Both the position numbers and the translations under genes were made by a program. Source: Candidatus Cloacimonadales bacterium (GTDB lineage: Bacteria; Cloacimonadota; Cloacimonadia; Cloacimonadales; JAFGVF01). From it: a stretch of DNA of 64,000 nucleotides. Under the pieces are notes generated by a model, which had not been told where the DNA came from, made no database searches, and saw nothing but the letters and a program-made list of their open reading frames with translations. The stretch lies in NCBI GenBank assembly GCA_963677495.2, contig CAXXOU010000003.1, positions 352,001 through 416,000 on the forward strand. The letters run 5' to 3'. Numbering within the stretch: position 1 is the stretch's first letter; each line of letters opens with the position of its first letter. Below, in pieces: positions 6,382-17,504 of the stretch.

Positions 6382-8808
6382 ATGAAAGTTCTTATTGTTG
6401 GTGGAGTTGCCGGAGGTGCTAGTACATTAGCACGACTGAGACGTTTAGATGAACGTGCTGAGATAGTTATGGTTGAGCGAGGTAAATACATAAGTTTTGC
6501 TAACTGTGGATTGCCTTACCATATTGGCGGGGTTATCAAGAACCGAGAGAACCTTTTAGTGGAGATTGAAGAGGGTTTAGAACAAAAATTCAATGTAGAC
6601 ATTAGAGTAGAGACTGAAGCAATCACAATAGATAGATCACGAAAGGTGGTTGTTCTTAAGAATCTCCACACAGGAGTTGAGTATGAAGAATCATATGATA
6701 AACTTGTTCTTTCTCCAGGTTCAATTCCATTTATCCCTGACCTCCCTGGAATCAATTCAAGAAGAGTACATTCACTTCGCAACATGAGTGATATGGATGG
6801 CATTATCGAATATATAAACACTCATAAAGTTAAGAATGCAATTGTAGTTGGTGGGGGATTTATAGGAGTTGAGACTGCTGAAAACCTCTTTGAACGTGGC
6901 ATTGATGTAGCAGTAGTAGAACGCGCACCTCAAATACTCGGTCAATTCGATTGGGACTTTGCCCAGATGGCTCATGAACAACTCGCTGATCATGGAATAA
7001 AAATCTATCTTGAGACATCAGTGGAAGGCTTTGAAGAGGTACCTGATGGTGTAAAAGTCATTCTTGATAATGATAGTGAACTTGAAGCCCAATTAGTCAT
7101 ACTTTCTATCGGAGTAGTGCCGGAAAGTAAGCTTGCTGTTGACGCTGGACTCGATATTGGTCATAAAGGTGCAATAATTGTAAATGAGAACTTACTTACT
7201 TCTGATCCTGATATCTATGCTGTTGGAGATGCAATTCAAGTTACATGTCAGATTCGTAATGAACCGATTTTAGTTCCTTTGGCATGGGGAGCAAACAGAC
7301 AGGGGAGACTCTGTGCTGATAATATCTGCGGTATGGATAAGAAATTCAGCCCACAGCTTGGTACATCAATTCTGAAAGTTTTTGATTATACTGGAGCAGC
7401 AACAGGGCTTAGCGCATTTCAATTAGAAAAAGCAGGCATTGAGTTTAAAACCGTCGTTGCAACACGTAACAATCATGCGGGTTATTATCCGGGTGCATTC
7501 CCAATGATGCTGAAGCTACATTATGCTGAGGATGGAACAATACTAGGTGCGCAAGGATTTGGTCTTGATGGAGTAGACAAAAGAATCGATGTCATTGCAA
7601 CAGCTATAAAAGGTAACTTAAAAGCGTGGGATTTACAAGATATTGAAGTAGCCTATGCACCACCTTTCAATTCTGCAAAAGATCCTGTTAACATCTTGGG
7701 CTATATGGCTGAGAACCGCAAGACCGGTATGGAGGAATCCATCACATGGAAAGAACTTGTCCAAGTTCAAGACAAAGTACAGATTTTAGATATCAGAACA
7801 TATGCAGAACGCTCTTTAGGTCACATAGAAAATGACATTCATATTGAATTAAATGATCTTCGAACAAGAATCGAGGAGTTGGATAAAGGTAAAGAATATG
7901 TTGTTTATTGTGCAATGGGGCATAGAGGATATATCGCATTCAGAATTCTGAAGCAGTATGGATTCAGAGTTCGGAATCTTATTGGTGGTTATAAACTATA
8001 TAAATATGCTTTCTCAAGCTTCGAACCTAAAGATGTAGCTGCAAAGAAAGATAAGCACTACCTGGAAAGCAACATTGATATAAGTAAACGCATTGTACTT
8101 GATGCATGTGGATTACAATGTCCCGGTCCGATAATGAAAACAAAAGAGGCGATGGAGACTCTAGAAAATGGTCAACTGCTTGAAGTTAAAGCGAGTGACC
8201 CCGGATTTAAGAAAGATGTTTATCATTGGGCCGATAGTACCGGTAATCAGGTTATCGAAACTAGCTTTGAAAAAGGGATAGTTACAGCTATTCTTCAAAA
8301 GGGTACAGGACGATCAAAAAACATTGGACTGACAGTTGAGAAGAATGGGCAAACAATCGTTGTGTTTAGTGGTGACTTAGATAAAGTTCTTGCGTCCATG
8401 ATTATCGCAAACGGTGCACTTGCTATGGGAAAAGATGTAACGCTATTCTTTACTTTCTGGGGATTAAATGCACTTAGAAGGAAAGGAACAAAGGTTAAGA
8501 AACCTTTGCTTGAGAAGATGTTTGGTGCTATGATGCCTGAGGGTATGGATGAACTCAAAATCTCTAAGATGAACATGGGTGGTATGGGCACTGCATTGAT
8601 GAAATCAATTATGCAGGAGAAGAATGTTGATAGTCTAGACACGCATTTGAAAAGTTTCTTGAAAAATGGTGGAAAAATAATTGCCTGTACAATGTCAATG
8701 GATGTATTAGGTATAACAAAAGATGAATTAATAGATGGAATCGAGTATGCCGGTGTTGCTTCATATTTAGGTGAAGCAGAGAAGGCAAGTTCTAACCTGT
8801 TTATTTAG
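6382..8808 (+). CDS. CoA-disulfide/persulfide reductase fused to rhodanese, TusA/SirA and DsrE-like domains
   Basis: GGVAGG FAD motif, SFANCGLP redox Cys, GGGFIG NADH motif, YAPPF; rhodanese CAMGHRG; TusA LDACGLQCPGP; DsrE FFTFWGL...ACTMSMD. Confidence 0.92.
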   Translation: MKVLIVGGVAGGASTLARLRRLDERAEIVMVERGKYISFANCGLPYHIGGVIKNRENLLVEIEEGLEQKFNVDIRVETEAITIDRSRKVVVLKNLHTGVEYEESYDKLVLSPGSIPFIPDLPGINSRRVHSLRNMSDMDGIIEYINTHKVKNAIVVGGGFIGVETAENLFERGIDVAVVERAPQILGQFDWDFAQMAHEQLADHGIKIYLETSVEGFEEVPDGVKVILDNDSELEAQLVILSIGVVPESKLAVDAGLDIGHKGAIIVNENLLTSDPDIYAVGDAIQVTCQIRNEPILVPLAWGANRQGRLCADNICGMDKKFSPQLGTSILKVFDYTGAATGLSAFQLEKAGIEFKTVVATRNNHAGYYPGAFPMMLKLHYAEDGTILGAQGFGLDGVDKRIDVIATAIKGNLKAWDLQDIEVAYAPPFNSAKDPVNILGYMAENRKTGMEESITWKELVQVQDKVQILDIRTYAERSLGHIENDIHIELNDLRTRIEELDKGKEYVVYCAMGHRGYIAFRILKQYGFRVRNLIGGYKLYKYAFSSFEPKDVAAKKDKHYLESNIDISKRIVLDACGLQCPGPIMKTKEAMETLENGQLLEVKASDPGFKKDVYHWADSTGNQVIETSFEKGIVTAILQKGTGRSKNIGLTVEKNGQTIVVFSGDLDKVLASMIIANGALAMGKDVTLFFTFWGLNALRRKGTKVKKPLLEKMFGAMMPEGMDELKISKMNMGGMGTALMKSIMQEKNVDSLDTHLKSFLKNGGKIIACTMSMDVLGITKDELIDGIEYAGVASYLGEAEKASSNLFI

Positions 8809-8817
8809 GAGGTAAAC

Positions 8818-9054
8818 ATGATAGAATTCAAAGATGGTGCATGTATTTGCGGTACTGTTAAAGTTGGAGAACGTGGTCAGATAGTAATACCTAAGAAAGC
8901 TAGGGATTACTTTGATATCCAAGCAGGTGACTCTCTAATTGTGCTTGGAGATAAGAATAAAGGTATCACAATTATTAAGGCTGATAAGCTTGAAAGCTTT
9001 GCAAACATGTTGTTGCAGAATGTTCAGGAAAATAAGGAGCAGGAAAATGATTAA
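8818..9054 (+). CDS. AbrB/MazE/SpoVT family DNA-binding protein
   Basis: GTVKVGERGQIVIPKKAR motif; AGGAGG RBS. Confidence 0.9.
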   Translation: MIEFKDGACICGTVKVGERGQIVIPKKARDYFDIQAGDSLIVLGDKNKGITIIKADKLESFANMLLQNVQENKEQEND

Positions 9055-11392: not shown

Positions 11393-11418
11393 AGAAGCCA
11401 CCTTGCAAGATGGCTTCT
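11393..11418 (-). terminator. intrinsic terminator after the APH-RIO gene
   Basis: AGAAGCCA...TGGCTTCT hairpin followed by a T-rich tract on the minus strand. Confidence 0.7.
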
Positions 11419-11442: not shown

Positions 11443-13128
11443 TTAACAATATCCATACCTAGGTTTCCAGAAACCTTTTGCGATTTCATCCGGGTTTGCC
11501 TCAATATCATAACGCTTGAAATATTTACACACATTTACTATATCTCTAACCAGCAAATCGTATGCATATTGATTTACTGAAGGGTTAACTGCTTGAGGAA
11601 AGTCAATGATGTATGGTTCCTCTTCATGATATAGGATGTTATAAGCAGATAGATCACCATGAACAATTCCATATTCAAGCATCGTTTCTATATCATCCAA
11701 TAACTTAGTGAATACTATCTTAGCTTCATCTTTAGTGAGTCTCGTATCTTTGAGTAATGAAGAGCACAAGTCCTGTTCTCCTAAGAACTCCATGACGATT
11801 GCATCATGTGTATGAGCAATTGGTTTAGGAACATTGACTCCAGCATCGTATAGTGTAGCTAATGTGTCATATTCATTACTCACCCAATTGGATCTTTCAG
11901 CATCTTGACCAACAGCAGTCTTCTTTCTAATAGCTCTTAGTAATCTTTGGTCCCACACTCTACCTATATGATATACTTTATCACGTTTGAAGTTCCTATA
12001 TTTCTTCTCTTTATACAATTTAACTGCCATGTACTCGCTATCCATGTTTTCATGTGATCTGCAACAAATGACGGTAGCTTCCTTTCCTTGTTTCACTACT
12101 CTGACGATATCTGATATTATCTTTTCATTATAGAAATCTACACAAGACTCACCATATCGCATCAGATCAGTTTTCATGACATTGTCAGAATTTAAGTACT
12201 TCAAGAAGATCGATTCATACAGCTTAACTCTCTCTAAATCAACCTCCGGTACAGAGTCTTTATTGAATCTCTGTCCAAGTTCACTCATGAAGTCAAGACA
12301 GCAAACAGTTGTATAAAAGTTAAGAATCTCTATCTTTCTAGGTTCCAGGTCATACTCATCTAACATGTAGTCAATATAGTCAGTATCACTACCTTGTGAA
12401 AGTAGTGCCATACGCGTCAAGGCAACATGGAAGAGTCTATCACCAAAGCATATATTATCAACATCAACTATACCCGTTAGCTTACCTTCATGGATAAGTA
12501 CGTTTTTAGTGGTTATATCATCAAGGAACGGTTTAGGTCTGATCCTATCTAAATAGTCACTGTACTTCTGTAGTTTAGAAAGAAGCTGTTCTGCATACTT
12601 AAGATCAAATATCCTTGTCTCTTCCAGTCTTCTTTTAGAACGCAAGATTGATTTGAAGACAACATCTTTCCAACTACTGTTTTCTCGAAGACTGCTGTCA
12701 TTGTAGCATTCAGCATATCCATAATAATCATTTTTCTGCAGTTTGGAAACAAGACTCTGAATACTAACTATCTCTCTTGCCAGAACTTGTTTCTGTTCTC
12801 CTGTCAGCTCATCATATACATAACATAAGTCTTTTCCGGGTAGTTTAGCAACAACCATGTATGGAAGCTTTTCATTTAAGTTATAGTGTAGTAGTTTTGC
12901 CAGTGGAAGGTCTAATCCTTTAAGATATTCATTCCAATAAACTCCACTTCTGATTAAAGACTCAGTACCTTCTCTTGCTATTCTGATTACGACTTCTTCG
13001 CCGTTACCGGACTTCACATTATAAACATAGTGACATAATCCTGTCGCTAATCTTTCAATCTCAATTATCTCTTCATTGTAGTGTCTTCTTATATATTTTT
13101 TTACTAACTCTATGTAGTTTGTTTTCAT
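11443..13128 (-). CDS. fusion of an aminoglycoside-phosphotransferase-like kinase (N-terminal) and a RIO1-family Ser/Thr kinase (C-terminal)
   Basis: N-terminal 'FLDDITTKNVLI..GIVDVD' APH-like motif. C-terminal GKEA, AVKLY, HGDLSAYNIL, IIDFPQAV RIO1 motifs. Confidence 0.85.
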   Translation of the reverse strand: MKTNYIELVKKYIRRHYNEEIIEIERLATGLCHYVYNVKSGNGEEVVIRIAREGTESLIRSGVYWNEYLKGLDLPLAKLLHYNLNEKLPYMVVAKLPGKDLCYVYDELTGEQKQVLAREIVSIQSLVSKLQKNDYYGYAECYNDSSLRENSSWKDVVFKSILRSKRRLEETRIFDLKYAEQLLSKLQKYSDYLDRIRPKPFLDDITTKNVLIHEGKLTGIVDVDNICFGDRLFHVALTRMALLSQGSDTDYIDYMLDEYDLEPRKIEILNFYTTVCCLDFMSELGQRFNKDSVPEVDLERVKLYESIFLKYLNSDNVMKTDLMRYGESCVDFYNEKIISDIVRVVKQGKEATVICCRSHENMDSEYMAVKLYKEKKYRNFKRDKVYHIGRVWDQRLLRAIRKKTAVGQDAERSNWVSNEYDTLATLYDAGVNVPKPIAHTHDAIVMEFLGEQDLCSSLLKDTRLTKDEAKIVFTKLLDDIETMLEYGIVHGDLSAYNILYHEEEPYIIDFPQAVNPSVNQYAYDLLVRDIVNVCKYFKRYDIEANPDEIAKGFWKPRYGYC

Positions 13129-13266
13129 TATTTCTCCGGTTAATATGATTAATTATATACTCAATTATATTTACTTCTCTTGTGTGTGTTGCAACATGTA
13201 CATTTCCATTCATTACGCTTAAGGCTTGCATTTTTACTCCTTTTGATGTGTTATCTTGTTAAATGT

Positions 13267-13404
13267 AAAGAAGCCTTTGGAACTATGTCCCAAAGGCTTA
13301 AAAATACTTTGGGATTAGACGTGTTCTTGCCTAATCCCAAGATTATATGTTACTTTTAAATCGTTGTGTCTGTCACTAATTCAAATACTAAAATGAGATT
13401 AGAC
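13267..13404 (-). promoter_or_regulatory. transcription attenuator (alternative hairpins plus terminator) in the leader of the APH-RIO gene
   Basis: Mutually exclusive stems GTCTAATCTCA / TTGGGATTAGGC / GTCTAATCCCAAAG / CTTTGGGA...TCCAAAGGCTT followed by CTTT. Confidence 0.75.
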
Positions 13405-13446
13405 TTACTTTGCTCTTGATTCCTTTTCGATTGATTTCATGTTCAT
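13405..13446 (-). CDS. leader peptide MNMKSIEKESRAK
   Basis: GGAGGA RBS at 13451-13456, directly downstream of the promoter. The stop codon abuts attenuator segment 1. Confidence 0.7.
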   Translation of the reverse strand: MNMKSIEKESRAK

Positions 13447-13477
13447 AAGTTCCTCCAATTCATTTAATATTTGTCCC

Positions 13478-13506
13478 AATATAAGGTTACATGCATTATT
13501 TGTCAA
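13478..13506 (-). promoter_or_regulatory. sigma70-type promoter TTGACA-N17-TATATT
   Basis: Near-consensus -35 and -10 boxes with 17-bp spacing. Confidence 0.8.
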
Positions 13507-13831
13507 GCAAAGAAGAGTTTGAAGAGTTTGAAGTCTTCGGACTTGCACCGCAACGATAGTGTACCGAAAACGGACTTCATCAATTGGTAGTATGACCGGA
13601 ACAGACATAACACAGTTAAATGATCAAGGAAGTCCGTTTTCGCTTCTCTTCGTTCAGCTCTGGCAAACTCCCTTGAGTATTTAGAAACAGTACAAAAGAC
13701 AGAGCAGTGTTTTAGTTGACAAGTTTCATTTATCACTAACAATATGCATATGATTGGCTTTGAGTATATTCCAGCTTGATTGGAATCAAGTCATGTTCAG
13801 TAACAGTTAAAAGGTTTAAGGGTATGAAATT

Positions 13832-16123
13832 ATGTCTTTAGATAATAGGCAAAAGATAACAGTAGAAGAGGATTCTGTAAAGGGATTGATTAATAAATAC
13901 ATAAAGTATATTTCCAGGACAAAGGCAGAAGATGAAGTCTATAAATGGAAATTGATTAAGGAATACGCAGGAAGACCCAATACTTATGCTAATGATTTTG
14001 CAAAGGAAGTAAAAGAAGTTAAGTTCGAGAACTTAATATGGGGTGTGGCTGGATCTGCCTTAAATACTCTGGCACAAAATAGACCGGAGAAGTTGCGATT
14101 TTTGTTTCAAAATCTATTCGATGAATCTATTGATTTAACAGAGCGAGTTATTGCTTTTAGCGAAGGAACGTTAAACCTTTACCATGAATTCGATGTGACA
14201 AAAAAGAGCTTTCAAGGTGAAAGGGAGATGTCTGTCTATTTAACTTACCATAATCCAGAAAAATATACATTTTATAAATCCTCATACTATGTAAAATATT
14301 GTAAGCTTATTGGGGTTAAACCTGCAAAAACAAATGAAAAATACGCTCATTATCTAACTTTGATTGATGAACTGATAGAGAAGTATATTAAAAATAATAC
14401 TGAGTTAATTGAATTAGTTAAATCTATCATCCCTGAGTATTATGCTGGTTCAAACCATAAAGTCTTAGCACAAGATATTTTGTATCAAACATTGGATAAC
14501 AATAAAGATATTGTATCATTCGAAGTAATTAAAGATAAGTTTGATGATGATGTATTCAATACCTATATTAAGTATTTACGAAACATTGTATCACGCCTTA
14601 ATATAGGACAAAACGATGATAGAGTTGTGTTTAGTGTTAGAACTGATAGATTAAGCTTTACTGTAGGACAACGATACTGTTTAAACATCTTCCTTAATAA
14701 TCCAAAAGGAATTTATGGGGTTATATCTAAAGATAAATTACTTGAGAATAGTGAAACCTATGATGGAGCTCAACCGGTTCCATATTACAGCTACTTTGAT
14801 GATTTTAATCCTAGCCAAAAAGATTTGGAGTCCATTATCTCTGCAGTAAAAAATGAATTGGATCATACAACAAAATCAAGCTTTAAAAAATACAATGATG
14901 AAAGTTTTGAGAACTATGTATATCAAGGTATCTCTACAATTAGGAGTTTAGACAATATGAACTACCCACTAAATACAATCTTCTATGGTCCTCCGGGAAC
15001 AGGTAAAACATATAACACAATCCTAAGAGCTGCTGAGATAATTGAAAACAGACGAATAGATTCCTTTAGTAAGGCATTAGAGATATACAAAGAGAACCTT
15101 CACGAGCAGATAGAGTTTATAACTTTTCATCAGAACTATAGTTATGAAGACTTCATCCAAGGTTTAAGGCCTGATACTGAAAATGATAGTAATCTAACTT
15201 TTGAGAGGAAGGATGGTATTTTTAAAGAGATTGCAGATAAAGCGTTAAAGAATATCAATGACTCAGAAAGGTCACCTATTGCTAAGAAATCTTTTGAGGT
15301 TGCTTTCAATGAATATGTAAGTCCTCTTATAGAGGGAGATGTTGAGGAAATCGAAGTTCAGATGAAACGAGTCTCTTATTATATAACAGCAGTTACTAAT
15401 AAATCTATTCAATTTAGAAAGGATAGTGGCGGAACAGCCCATACATTGAGTATTAGCACTCTAAAGAAAATGTATGAAGCAGAATCTGTTTTAGATATTC
15501 AAGGTCTTTCTTCGTATTATAAACCACTTTTGAGAGTACTTCTTAGTATTGGTAAAGATTCTTCCGGTAAAAAGCAAATTGTACAAAAGAAAAACTATGT
15601 TCTTATCATAGACGAGATAAACAGAGCCAATATATCAAGAGTATTTGGCGAGCTTATCACTCTGATAGAACCGGATAAACGCTCGCATGGAGCATTCCCT
15701 TTAAAAGCGAAGTTGCCATCCGGAGAGTTGTTCATTATACCTTCGAACTTATACATCATTGGTACTATGAATACAGCTGATAAGTCAATTGCTTTATTGG
15801 ATATTGCTCTTAGAAGAAGGTTTGATTTTGAAGCGATGTATCCTAAATACGATATACCGAATCAAGAGATATATGATGTTGATATTCTTAAGAAGTTAAA
15901 CGAAAAGATTATCGAGTCTAAAGGACACGATTTCCAAATTGGGCACTCTTACTTTATGGATAAAGACATGGATCTGCTTCAAAGAATGAACAAGAAAGTG
16001 ATTCCATTACTTTTGGAATACTTTATGAATGATGAAAAAGAGGTTAGGGCAATACTTCAGTCCGCAGGCTTAATCATCGAAAAGGGTTCATGGCCTATTA
16101 GAATAATCGGTAAGAATGAATAA
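13832..16123 (+). CDS. mcrB: McrB-family AAA+ GTPase, modification-dependent restriction subunit
   Basis: GPPGTGKT, TFHQNYSYEDF, IIDEINRAN, GTMNTADKS and ALRRRF motifs. Confidence 0.93.
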   Translation: MSLDNRQKITVEEDSVKGLINKYIKYISRTKAEDEVYKWKLIKEYAGRPNTYANDFAKEVKEVKFENLIWGVAGSALNTLAQNRPEKLRFLFQNLFDESIDLTERVIAFSEGTLNLYHEFDVTKKSFQGEREMSVYLTYHNPEKYTFYKSSYYVKYCKLIGVKPAKTNEKYAHYLTLIDELIEKYIKNNTELIELVKSIIPEYYAGSNHKVLAQDILYQTLDNNKDIVSFEVIKDKFDDDVFNTYIKYLRNIVSRLNIGQNDDRVVFSVRTDRLSFTVGQRYCLNIFLNNPKGIYGVISKDKLLENSETYDGAQPVPYYSYFDDFNPSQKDLESIISAVKNELDHTTKSSFKKYNDESFENYVYQGISTIRSLDNMNYPLNTIFYGPPGTGKTYNTILRAAEIIENRRIDSFSKALEIYKENLHEQIEFITFHQNYSYEDFIQGLRPDTENDSNLTFERKDGIFKEIADKALKNINDSERSPIAKKSFEVAFNEYVSPLIEGDVEEIEVQMKRVSYYITAVTNKSIQFRKDSGGTAHTLSISTLKKMYEAESVLDIQGLSSYYKPLLRVLLSIGKDSSGKKQIVQKKNYVLIIDEINRANISRVFGELITLIEPDKRSHGAFPLKAKLPSGELFIIPSNLYIIGTMNTADKSIALLDIALRRRFDFEAMYPKYDIPNQEIYDVDILKKLNEKIIESKGHDFQIGHSYFMDKDMDLLQRMNKKVIPLLLEYFMNDEKEVRAILQSAGLIIEKGSWPIRIIGKNE

Positions 16124-17504
16124 TCTCTTTGAGTATCGTAACAAAATAAAGTTTCAAGATAGTTTCGAAGGCTTAGAAAGCTTTCTTGATGAGATTTGGA
16201 ACAATCGTGATAAGAATTCCTTCTTTAGAAACAATGATGAAGATACGATAGAATCTCAAAGATTCATACAGTTTATCCACAAAACCAGTGAGTTAAAATC
16301 TAATAAATATGTTGGTGTAATTCACTATAAAGGCCAAAGGATAAATCTGTTACCAAAGATATTTTATGATTCCGAGAAAGAATACTCTGACAATCATATA
16401 TATCAGATCCATAATCACATTCTCTGGTGGTTAAGTTATTGTCGCAAAATCAAGTTTCCAAGCTACCAAACCACTTTGGGAAATAAAGAAAGTGATTTCT
16501 TTGAAGTCTTAATCTATCTCTTCTCCAAATACACTCGAAAACTCTTAAATTCCTCTATCTATCAGCAGTATCAGGAAGTTAATCGTGAGCTTTCGTATAT
16601 AAAAGGAAGACTTAATACTACCGGATATATCAATGAGAATGTGAGTAGAGGGAATTGGCATAAGCTCAATTGTACTTATGATGCATTTGTCATTGATAAT
16701 GAGTTCAATCGGATAATTAAATATGTTACAACCCTACTATTCAATGTTGCTACTAGGCAAGAGAATAAGAAGAATTTAAGAGAGATTCTGTTCATTTTGG
16801 ATGAGGTCACCGATGAAAGAGTCACTGCTGAGCAGTGTTCTAGAATTTCTTTTAATCCAATGTTTGGTGAGTTTGAAACTGTTAGAGACTATTGTCATTT
16901 ATTCCTTTCTAACAGCGTTTCTTTCGATTATAAGAATGATCTAAAGCTCTTTGCCTTTCTCTTACCTATGGAGTATGTCTTCGAAGACTTTATCTTCGGG
17001 TTTATTGATAAAGAGTTACCGGACATATCTGTAAAAGCTCAAAGAGGTGATACCTTCTTAGATATAGACAAAACATTTAAGATTAAACCGGACTTATGGA
17101 TTGAAACAGAAGACTTATCATTGATTGCTGATGCAAAGTATAAGATTATCTATGAGGATAACAGTGATCCCAAGAAAGGCATTTCTCAACCAGATCTTTA
17201 CCAGATGCTTGCCTATGCTGTAAGGTTTAAGGTGTGCAATATAATTCTGTTTTATCCAAGTACTGTTATACAAGATCAAGAAGAAGAAACTGAAATCATA
17301 ATTAAAGATACACTTGCATTAGAGAAAGAAGTTAAAATAAAGGTACATCAGTTACCAATAATAAATATCCCTCTATTGGAGACAAAGATAAGTTCAAATG
17401 TTGATATAAAAGAATTGTTTAAACCAACGCGCGACAATTTAGCTAATAAAATAAGAAGTATTCTCACTCAAATATGTAATAAACAGTCAATTGATTCCAA
17501 TTAA
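16116..17504 (+). CDS. mcrC: McrC-family restriction nuclease subunit
   Basis: Overlaps mcrB. YVGVI..I.LLPK, MEYVFEDFI, KPDL..IADAKYK and DLYQMLAYA motifs. Confidence 0.92.
   Translation: MNNLFEYRNKIKFQDSFEGLESFLDEIWNNRDKNSFFRNNDEDTIESQRFIQFIHKTSELKSNKYVGVIHYKGQRINLLPKIFYDSEKEYSDNHIYQIHNHILWWLSYCRKIKFPSYQTTLGNKESDFFEVLIYLFSKYTRKLLNSSIYQQYQEVNRELSYIKGRLNTTGYINENVSRGNWHKLNCTYDAFVIDNEFNRIIKYVTTLLFNVATRQENKKNLREILFILDEVTDERVTAEQCSRISFNPMFGEFETVRDYCHLFLSNSVSFDYKNDLKLFAFLLPMEYVFEDFIFGFIDKELPDISVKAQRGDTFLDIDKTFKIKPDLWIETEDLSLIADAKYKIIYEDNSDPKKGISQPDLYQMLAYAVRFKVCNIILFYPSTVIQDQEEETEIIIKDTLALEKEVKIKVHQLPIINIPLLETKISSNVDIKELFKPTRDNLANKIRSILTQICNKQSIDSN

Follow-up and report, generated by a model that had tools for sequence, protein, structure and literature searches.

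A putative ribosome-dependent leader-peptide attenuator upstream of RIO1-like kinase genes in Cloacimonadota

Introduction

In Listeria monocytogenes, rli80-hflXr is controlled by an attenuator with a 14-codon upstream open reading frame (uORF) that carries an RLR motif, and control depends on stalled ribosomes (excerpts of PMC6310831). In Bacillus subtilis, bmrB-bmrCD has a ribosome-mediated transcription attenuator that responds to ribosome-targeting antibiotics (excerpts of PMC4191407). We analyzed a 64,000-nt stretch of a Candidatus Cloacimonadales bacterium (contig CAXXOU010000003.1, positions 352,001 to 416,000; hereafter the window) whose minus strand carries a leader of this general design, with a promoter, a 13-codon uORF and two hairpins in tandem, ahead of a small reading frame (ORF2) and a gene that fuses an APH-like phosphotransferase to a RIO1-like kinase (APH-RIO). 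Modeling suggests that this leader is probably a ribosome-dependent leader-peptide transcription attenuator controlling ORF2 and the APH-RIO kinase, which a ribosome held up over the first ten or so codons of the uORF would switch ON.

The enterobacterial trp and his leaders encode peptides of similar size, are built from alternately complementary segments (six in his) and are coupled to the lead ribosome; their antiterminator, the less stable of the two structures, prevails over the terminator because it forms earlier. Control of ermC is translational, and frees the Shine-Dalgarno (SD) sequence of the structural gene. In archaea and eukaryotes, the small ribosomal subunit is where RIO kinases act; we know of no role for the RIO-type kinases of bacteria. 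Our literature search, made in a limited collection, found nothing on RIO-type kinases or their regulation in bacteria, and nothing on leader peptides or attenuators in Cloacimonadota (Cloacimonetes).

Results

Parts and folding of the leader

A preliminary description of the window had placed a promoter, a GGAGGA ribosome-binding site, a 13-residue uORF, complementary segments and hairpins on the minus strand, and all of these lie where it put them. The whole arrangement spans 13506-13261:

13506-13501 and 13483-13478, minus strand: promoter, -35 TTGACA and -10 TATATT, 17-nt spacer, 11 of 12 consensus matches
13447..13471, minus strand: segment 0, a 5' untranslated region (5'UTR) of ~25 nt that includes the uORF SD; its partner is the stretch just past the uORF stop
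13456-13451, minus strand: uORF SD, GGAGGA, 4 nt ahead of the ATG
13405..13446, minus strand: uORF, 13 codons and TAA (MNMKSIEKESRAK), with the ATG at 13446 and the TAA at 13407-13405
13425-13420, minus strand: SD-like AAGGAA inside the uORF
13404-13394, minus strand: segment 1, abutting the uORF stop codon; 13382..13404 with its 3' extension
13340-13329 (segment 2) and 13320-13309 (segment 3), minus strand: hairpin A, 12 bp, 8-nt loop, followed by AGTATTTTTA
13299-13287 (segment 4) and 13283-13271 (segment 5), minus strand: terminator hairpin, 13 bp (6 GC pairs), loop ATA
13270-13261, minus strand: U-rich tail CTTTACATTT, interrupted

From the position of the promoter we infer a transcription start near 13471. 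Segment 1 is a direct copy of segment 3 (10/11 identical, 91%) and, with its 3' extension, can pair alternatively with segment 0 or segment 2. It is separated from hairpin A by a 53-nt spacer, which places the uORF end 64 nt before the hairpin, while a U-rich 9-nt linker lies between hairpin A and the terminator hairpin; CTTTGGGA within segment 4 is complementary to TCCCAAAG at the end of segment 3. The layout has what defines leader-peptide attenuators, namely a translatable uORF (SD, start and stop) between promoter and structural gene, and a terminator (13-bp stem and U-rich tail) between the uORF and that gene. Five complementary segments had been proposed in the preliminary description and all five are present; the sixth partner, in the 5'UTR and SD, had been overlooked. 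The terminator hairpin is likewise as described there, except that in the window the U-tract is an interrupted one. The genome of the window holds a single copy of the leader. A 67-codon ORF in frame with the uORF (13608-13405) was rejected as a gene: it has no family match and its start lies upstream of the conserved promoter.

The 251-nt leader has a minimum free energy (MFE) of -59 kcal/mol, compared to -35.6 ± 3.7 for 200 dinucleotide shuffles (z = -6.3, 0/200 as good). In the MFE structure, segment 0 forms 18-20 pairs with the RNA from segment 1 onward; the energy of this pairing (0:1) is -12.1 kcal/mol, and that of the next best site elsewhere is -8.0. Pairing of segment 3 with segment 4 (3:4) amounts to -12.0 kcal/mol, with 0/300 shuffles as good, and excludes the terminator, as the antiterminator of a leader-peptide attenuator does; this agrees with the earlier proposal that a free segment 3 can pair with the 5' arm of the terminator. 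The two hairpins account for two terminator-like sites where 0.4 ± 0.7 are expected. Such a tandem might also be read as devoid of regulation, i.e., as successive terminators of a small upstream transcript, or else as an attenuator responding to amino-acid starvation. Either reading seems scarcely credible to us: the 13-codon uORF is all that ends there, it has no run of codons for a single amino acid (and hence none for an amino acid made by its operon), the cargo is a kinase and not biosynthetic, and the alternative helices are supported by covariation, as set out below.

Conservation across Cloacimonadota

A search of 232 Cloacimonadota genomes for the kinase (E ≤ 1e-60) gave 19 matches, one of which is on a truncated contig and was left out of the count. 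The leader layout is present at 18/18 assessable RIO-type kinase loci, directly upstream in 16 and heading longer operons in two; conservation upstream of RIO1 homologues is the check that had been suggested for the attenuator, and every assessable locus in these genomes is led. The 16 directly led loci (the RIO leaders, to which the counts given below refer) are 11/11 of the fused APH-RIO genes having an intergenic region directly upstream and 5/5 RIO-only genes (~250 amino acids [aa], with neither the APH domain nor ORF2). In the other two (G150 and G168), which represent another family of fused genes, the kinase is last in a same-strand cluster that carries the same leader design at its head and none adjoining the kinase; these clusters are presumably co-transcribed. 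The relatives are kin and not independent samples, so that the weight of these counts is carried by about six lineages.

All 16 RIO leaders have a TTGACA, located 58-62 nt ahead of the uORF ATG in 14/16 and 90-91 nt ahead in 2/16, and a uORF of 11-14 codons with a strong SD. The encoded peptides change quickly; those of the same-genus pair differ at 4/13 residues while the kinases are 88% identical. Terminators of the relatives have clean U6-U8 tracts, in contrast to the interrupted one of the window. In the RIO-only leaders a clean U-run directly follows hairpin A, and with this U-run of its own, hairpin A would there be opposed by pairing of segments 1 and 2 (1:2) acting as a direct antiterminator. 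Since the leader accompanies the RIO domain with or without the APH domain and ORF2, the association of leader and RIO domain may be old. Among 11 RIO-only genes of other phyla, whose upstream regions were judged by eye, none had the combination of SD, short uORF and tandem hairpins.

Two further observations concern individual loci. The APH-RIO gene of G004 (L008/L015) is matched in two parts (residues 2-474 and 472-555) and is thus split or frameshifted, with its leader intact. L025 and L027 have an identical stretch ~55 nt before a RIO-only gene, in metagenome-assembled genomes labelled Gammaproteobacteria and Patescibacteria; this could reflect a binning error or transfer.

Alternative helices and covariation

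The leader is a chain of six alternately complementary segments, in which pairings 0:1, 2:3 and 4:5 compete with pairings 1:2 and 3:4. In the terminator state, the hairpin A helix (2:3) is 96% paired with 7/12 pairs changed on both sides, and the terminator helix (4:5) is 78% paired with 6/13 pairs changed on both sides; as a control on the whole structure, none of 500 shuffles reaches the covariation score of this state. The ON-state helices, scored on a MAFFT alignment of whole leaders that was not fitted to structure, also covary. Helix 1:2 (alignment positions 105-115 with 254-264) is 89.2% paired and 5/11 of its pairs have changed on both sides, while helix 3:4 is 77.7% paired with 3/8 pairs changed on both sides. 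Taken together, the ON-state pairs have a covariation of 0.391, compared to 0.223 ± 0.017 in shuffles (0/500 as high) and ≤0.204 in slid controls.

An alignment-free scan compared the 5' arm of hairpin A with all 18-nt windows of the transcript upstream of it (92-186 per leader). For segment 2, the best upstream partner begins -8 to +7 nt from the first base after the uORF stop in 16/16 leaders, even as the sequences of both 1:2 partners vary between families; this is the competition of segments 1 and 3 for segment 2 that the preliminary description had put forward. By the same kind of scan, the best partner of the 5'UTR lies right past the stop codon in 13/16 leaders (0:1), with sequences that are quite different between families. 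Within the family of the window, 3:4 ranges from -12.0 to -15.7 kcal/mol and 0-7 of 300 shuffles are as good. Parts, fold and recurrence in relatives with compensatory changes therefore bear out, at the level of computation, the earlier view of the element as a complete leader-peptide attenuator.

GGGAU and AUCCC cores are kept across families beyond the needs of pairing alone, which could be taken to mean that a protein or ligand acts on the repeated GUCUAAUC(U/C)CA and GGGAUU motifs, the uORF being incidental. A riboregulator of this sort is highly improbable in our judgment. The window leader has no match among the Rfam 15 models (riboswitches, T-boxes and leaders included) at gathering score, and no relevant one at an E-value threshold (the best sub-threshold hit is to an unrelated snoRNA model, with 21.4 bits vs. 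44). In addition, 25/25 leaders, counting the sibling leaders described below with the RIO leaders, keep a strong SD, an ATG, 11-15 codons and a stop codon next to segment 1. The cores themselves would be explained by the chain: each segment has to match two partners, and because segment 0 is the SD, to which the chain is anchored, later segments inherit its GGA-like or UCC-like core.

Proposed mechanism and folding with ribosome masks

The attenuator reading draws on parts, complementarity, conservation, covariation and cargo, all of which the computation shows; that the hairpin terminates transcription, that a ribosome sets the outcome, in which direction it does so and what induces the switch are predictions, which would run as follows. 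Transcription would begin at the predicted start, and a ribosome would load on the GGAGGA and translate the 13 codons. Under normal translation (OFF), the ribosome would reach the stop codon and cover segment 1, which upon release would pair back to the 5'UTR and SD (0:1); hairpin A (2:3) and the terminator (4:5) would then form and RNA polymerase would halt ahead of ORF2. A delayed ribosome (ON) would occupy the 5'UTR and leave segment 1 bare as segment 2 emerges, allowing 1:2 to form; segment 3 would be free to pair with segment 4 (the antiterminator 3:4), segment 5 would be left without a partner and transcription would read through. With a ribosome footprint assumed to reach ~13 nt downstream of the P site, simple arithmetic predicts that segment 1 is covered once the stop codon has entered the A site.

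Folding of transcripts of increasing length is consistent with this sequence of events. The unmasked window transcript folds 0:1 and 2:3, and then 4:5. When the 5'UTR and codons 1-5 are masked and the transcript extends to segment 2, helix 1:2 is in the MFE structure of 16/16 leaders. With the same mask and a transcript extending to segment 4, the ON state lies 0-1.0 kcal/mol from the OFF state in 7/7 leaders of the window’s family (+0.2 kcal/mol in the window itself) and is the MFE structure in 4/7. This prefix folding was used instead of equilibrium masks on the full-length RNA, which always give the terminator for the window and are thus uninformative.

Several results weigh against the proposed mechanism. 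At equilibrium, the full-length leader keeps both terminator-state hairpins under every ribosome mask, and in such masked folds the ON state of the window is never the MFE structure. In the nine leaders outside the window’s family, masking up to segment 4 leaves ON 2.8-9.3 kcal/mol worse than OFF, and outside this family 3:4 is no better than shuffles (28-128 of 300 as good). Pairing 0:1 is not the best in L004, L009 and L010, and is weak in L005. L004 folds ON as an unmasked transcript to segment 4 and goes OFF under masks at codons 11-14 only. The interrupted U-tract means that the terminator of the window could be leaky, and the RIO leaders lack a common arrest motif. Finally, an SD-like tetramer occurs 18-24 nt after the A of the uORF ATG (12-24 nt before the stop) in 16/16 RIO leaders, compared to 35% of equal-length coding windows; its frame varies (one family has AAG GAA, others a GGA codon for Gly), so that the conservation is at the nucleotide level, and it has no place in the relay described above. 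As the full-length RNA prefers the terminator state at equilibrium, the switch must be kinetic, as it likewise is in classical attenuators. The behavior of L004 also raises the possibility that the default state may differ between lineages.

The internal SD-like motif suggests another use of the same relay, in which it reads the load of initiation and termination: a second ribosome, or a 30S subunit on the SD after the first ribosome has left the stop, would mean ON. A variant would have the OFF state require a ribosome parked at the stop and held by the internal motif, so that the leader reports ribosome availability, or release and recycling. The conserved tetramer fits these schemes, as do the stop codon that abuts segment 1 in 16/16 leaders and the leaders in which 0:1 is absent or weak (L004 and L005), where only masks with the P site at codons 11-14 switch ON to OFF. 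Set against them are the window RNA, which folds OFF when untranslated, four sibling uORFs with an RLR arrest motif in mid-frame, and cargo (HflX, exporters, GNAT, APH) like that of drug-response operons; we regard the two variants, taken jointly, as unlikely.

Sibling leaders and the likely trigger

Siblings were sought in 151 of the 232 genomes with a covariance model (R1) built from hairpin A and the terminator of the RIO leaders, which picks up only those with similar hairpins; their number is therefore a lower bound. Eight of 17 inspected loci have the full layout, and a ninth was found in G168. The remaining nine of the 17 were dropped, having no uORF and resembling ordinary terminators that share the GGGAUU stem; L066 is among them, its ‘uORF’ overlapping the match. 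The nine siblings head the following genes:

G180, G176 and G040: two ABC exporter genes, then HflX
G174 and G022: ABC exporter, in a locus cut off by the contig end
G150: 47-codon basic ORF, ABC, GNAT, ABC, APH-RIO
G168: 47-codon basic ORF, ABC, ABC, a 203-aa protein, a 1028-aa GNAT protein, APH-RIO
G058: RsgA
G027, second copy: amidohydrolase and a 1038-aa GNAT protein

The 47-codon ORF between leader and ABC genes in G150 and G168 is very basic (MK..IQK.YNRKRPA...; L075, 9147-9290, minus strand; L080, ~8788-8931, minus strand).

An RLR motif is present in 4/9 sibling uORFs, and all four precede ABC exporter genes. By footprint arithmetic, the predicted stall in these uORFs (P site at codon 4 or 8) would leave segment 1 uncovered, as the proposed mechanism requires. 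The preliminary description had seen in the leader the logic of antibiotic-responsive attenuators, and the design does fit with such leaders, given siblings that head HflX, ABC-exporter, GNAT and APH-RIO operons. It had further pointed to the R-A-K at the end of the window peptide as a +X+ arrest motif, which would imply that a macrolide-bound ribosome arrested at R11-A12-K13 switches the gene on. The motif is indeed there, +X+ is documented as a macrolide/ketolide arrest motif (excerpts of PMC8298421 and PMC12583479), and the four exporter leaders with RLR offer a parallel. This part of the description nonetheless does not hold up, and we consider macrolide arrest at R-A-K very unlikely. A [KR]-x-[KR] is found in 2/16 RIO leaders (RAK in the window, KKK in L010; peptides counted by eye) and so is not kept among orthologous leaders as would be expected of the +X+/RLR arrest type, and the same-genus peptide ends in S-T-R despite the 88% identity of the kinase. 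The stall would also be badly placed: with the P site at codon 12 of the 13, the footprint would extend ~4 nt into segment 1 and favor hairpin A and termination, and masks at codons 12-14 leave 2:3 of the window intact.

Given a peptide that changes fast at constant length and with a fixed stop position, the leader more likely reads translation that is slowed or stalled in general than a drug-specific arrest peptide. The sibling leaders make one or more ribosome-targeting antibiotics the most likely natural trigger.

Regulated genes and neighborhood

The kinase is preceded by the leader, as had been described, with ORF2 between it and the terminator. The putative unit and its 3' end comprise:

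13073..13231, minus strand: ORF2, 52 codons, strong SD AAAGGAG; first frame past the terminator, overlapping the kinase start by 56 nt
11443..13128, minus strand: APH-RIO kinase fusion, 561 aa; APH-like phosphotransferase at residues 24-260, RIO1-like kinase at residues 362-543
11393..11418, minus strand: terminator-like hairpin, 25 nt past the kinase stop
11324: promoter-like TTGACA site, between hairpin 11393..11418 and a DUF1576 gene

The SD of ORF2 lies ~30 nt past the terminator. Pfam and NCBIfam searches with ORF2 gave no match, and its sequence is well conserved inside the genus and poorly outside. In 11/11 directly led APH-RIO loci the terminator is followed by a frame of 38-61 codons that has a strong SD and in 9/11 overlaps the kinase start by 40-89 nt; ORF2 may encode a small protein or serve as a coupling frame. 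The linker and segment 4 (13292-13305) can form a 14-nt pairing, 86% complementary, with the SD and start of ORF2 (13230-13243), which is present in the MFE structure of the 251-nt leader and may constitute a second, translational layer of control.

The kinase matches RIO1 (1.4e-40) and APH (3.3e-16), as well as the PA4780-family RIO1-like (9.5e-49) and APH(3') (5.4e-15) models, the latter two below their curated cut-offs; it also matches Rio1 structures at 4e-19. Residues corresponding to the RIO1-like catalytic loop and metal-binding motifs are invariant in 10 homologues. PADLOC gave only weak kinase-domain matches for the protein, the best being PD-T4-6 (3.7e-07).

The hairpin at 11393..11418 is likely the end of the unit that the attenuator would control. 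Inclusion of the DUF1576 gene and a 125-aa gene in the unit was considered and rejected, because this hairpin and the promoter-like site intervene and the two genes are conserved only within the genus. Divergent from the kinase unit are genes for a McrB-like AAA ATPase (763 aa) and McrC (462 aa; together 13832-17504, plus strand). In the divergent region, a 9-nt repeat occurs twice in tandem immediately before the -35 (13512-13529), and a 21-nt inverted repeat with arms 50 nt apart lies further upstream (13558-13649).

Discussion

A RIO-type kinase placed under a leader that probably senses ribosomes is a lead that the kinase may be made when translation is impaired. A broader proposal is that the leader design marks a phylum-wide translation-stress regulon (HflX, RsgA, ABC exporters, GNAT and APH-RIO), within which the RIO1-like kinase, alone or fused to an APH-like domain, would be induced by stalling and would act on either the ribosome's small subunit or a drug that targets the ribosome; this is possible, and we put it forward tentatively, as more doubtful than the attenuator itself. 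If it is true, the role of the RIO1-like kinase in antibiotic tolerance or ribosome rescue would be of a new kind, comparable to that of HflXr. Attenuation of drug-response-like genes through leader peptides is known mainly from Firmicutes; here it would serve as a module that is reused within an uncultured phylum of anaerobic digesters.

Among the sibling leaders, an RLR uORF and HflX cargo recur, both features of the Listeria hflXr attenuator. The window leader differs from that attenuator in having no RLR in its uORF, an APH-RIO kinase as cargo and a host in another phylum, and in being a predicted element. The window uORF also does not overlap an anti-anti-terminator; the leader instead uses an extra competitor at the stop (segment 1) and a helix that sequesters the SD. 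The bmrB-bmrCD system resembles the proposed mechanism in its ribosome-mediated attenuation and three alternative stem-loops (in bmrB), and its heterodimeric ABC exporter cargo is like that of the sibling leaders. The bmrB leader has 53 codons with the stem-loops inside the frame, whereas the window uORF has 13 codons and ends well before hairpin A.

The trp and his leaders resemble the window leader in peptide size, in the chain of segments and, if the proposed mechanism is right, in an antiterminator that is less stable and the first to form, and in coupling to the lead ribosome. Unlike them, the window leader has neither regulatory codon runs nor biosynthetic cargo, and its first segment is the SD region of the uORF itself. 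Leaders of the erm type (ermC, ermD) and of mef/msr genes (for mef/mel, excerpts of PMC4335068) have a short uORF on which a stalled ribosome remodels downstream hairpins, some with +X+ or RLR. The output of ermC is translational, while that of the window leader is a predicted terminator, with the SD of ORF2 lying beyond it. The class of mechanism, leader-peptide transcription attenuation, is thus already known. What is new is the RIO1-like kinase as cargo, the phylum, a chain whose first link is the SD of the uORF itself, and the reuse of one leader design for ribosome-related and drug-response-like operons.

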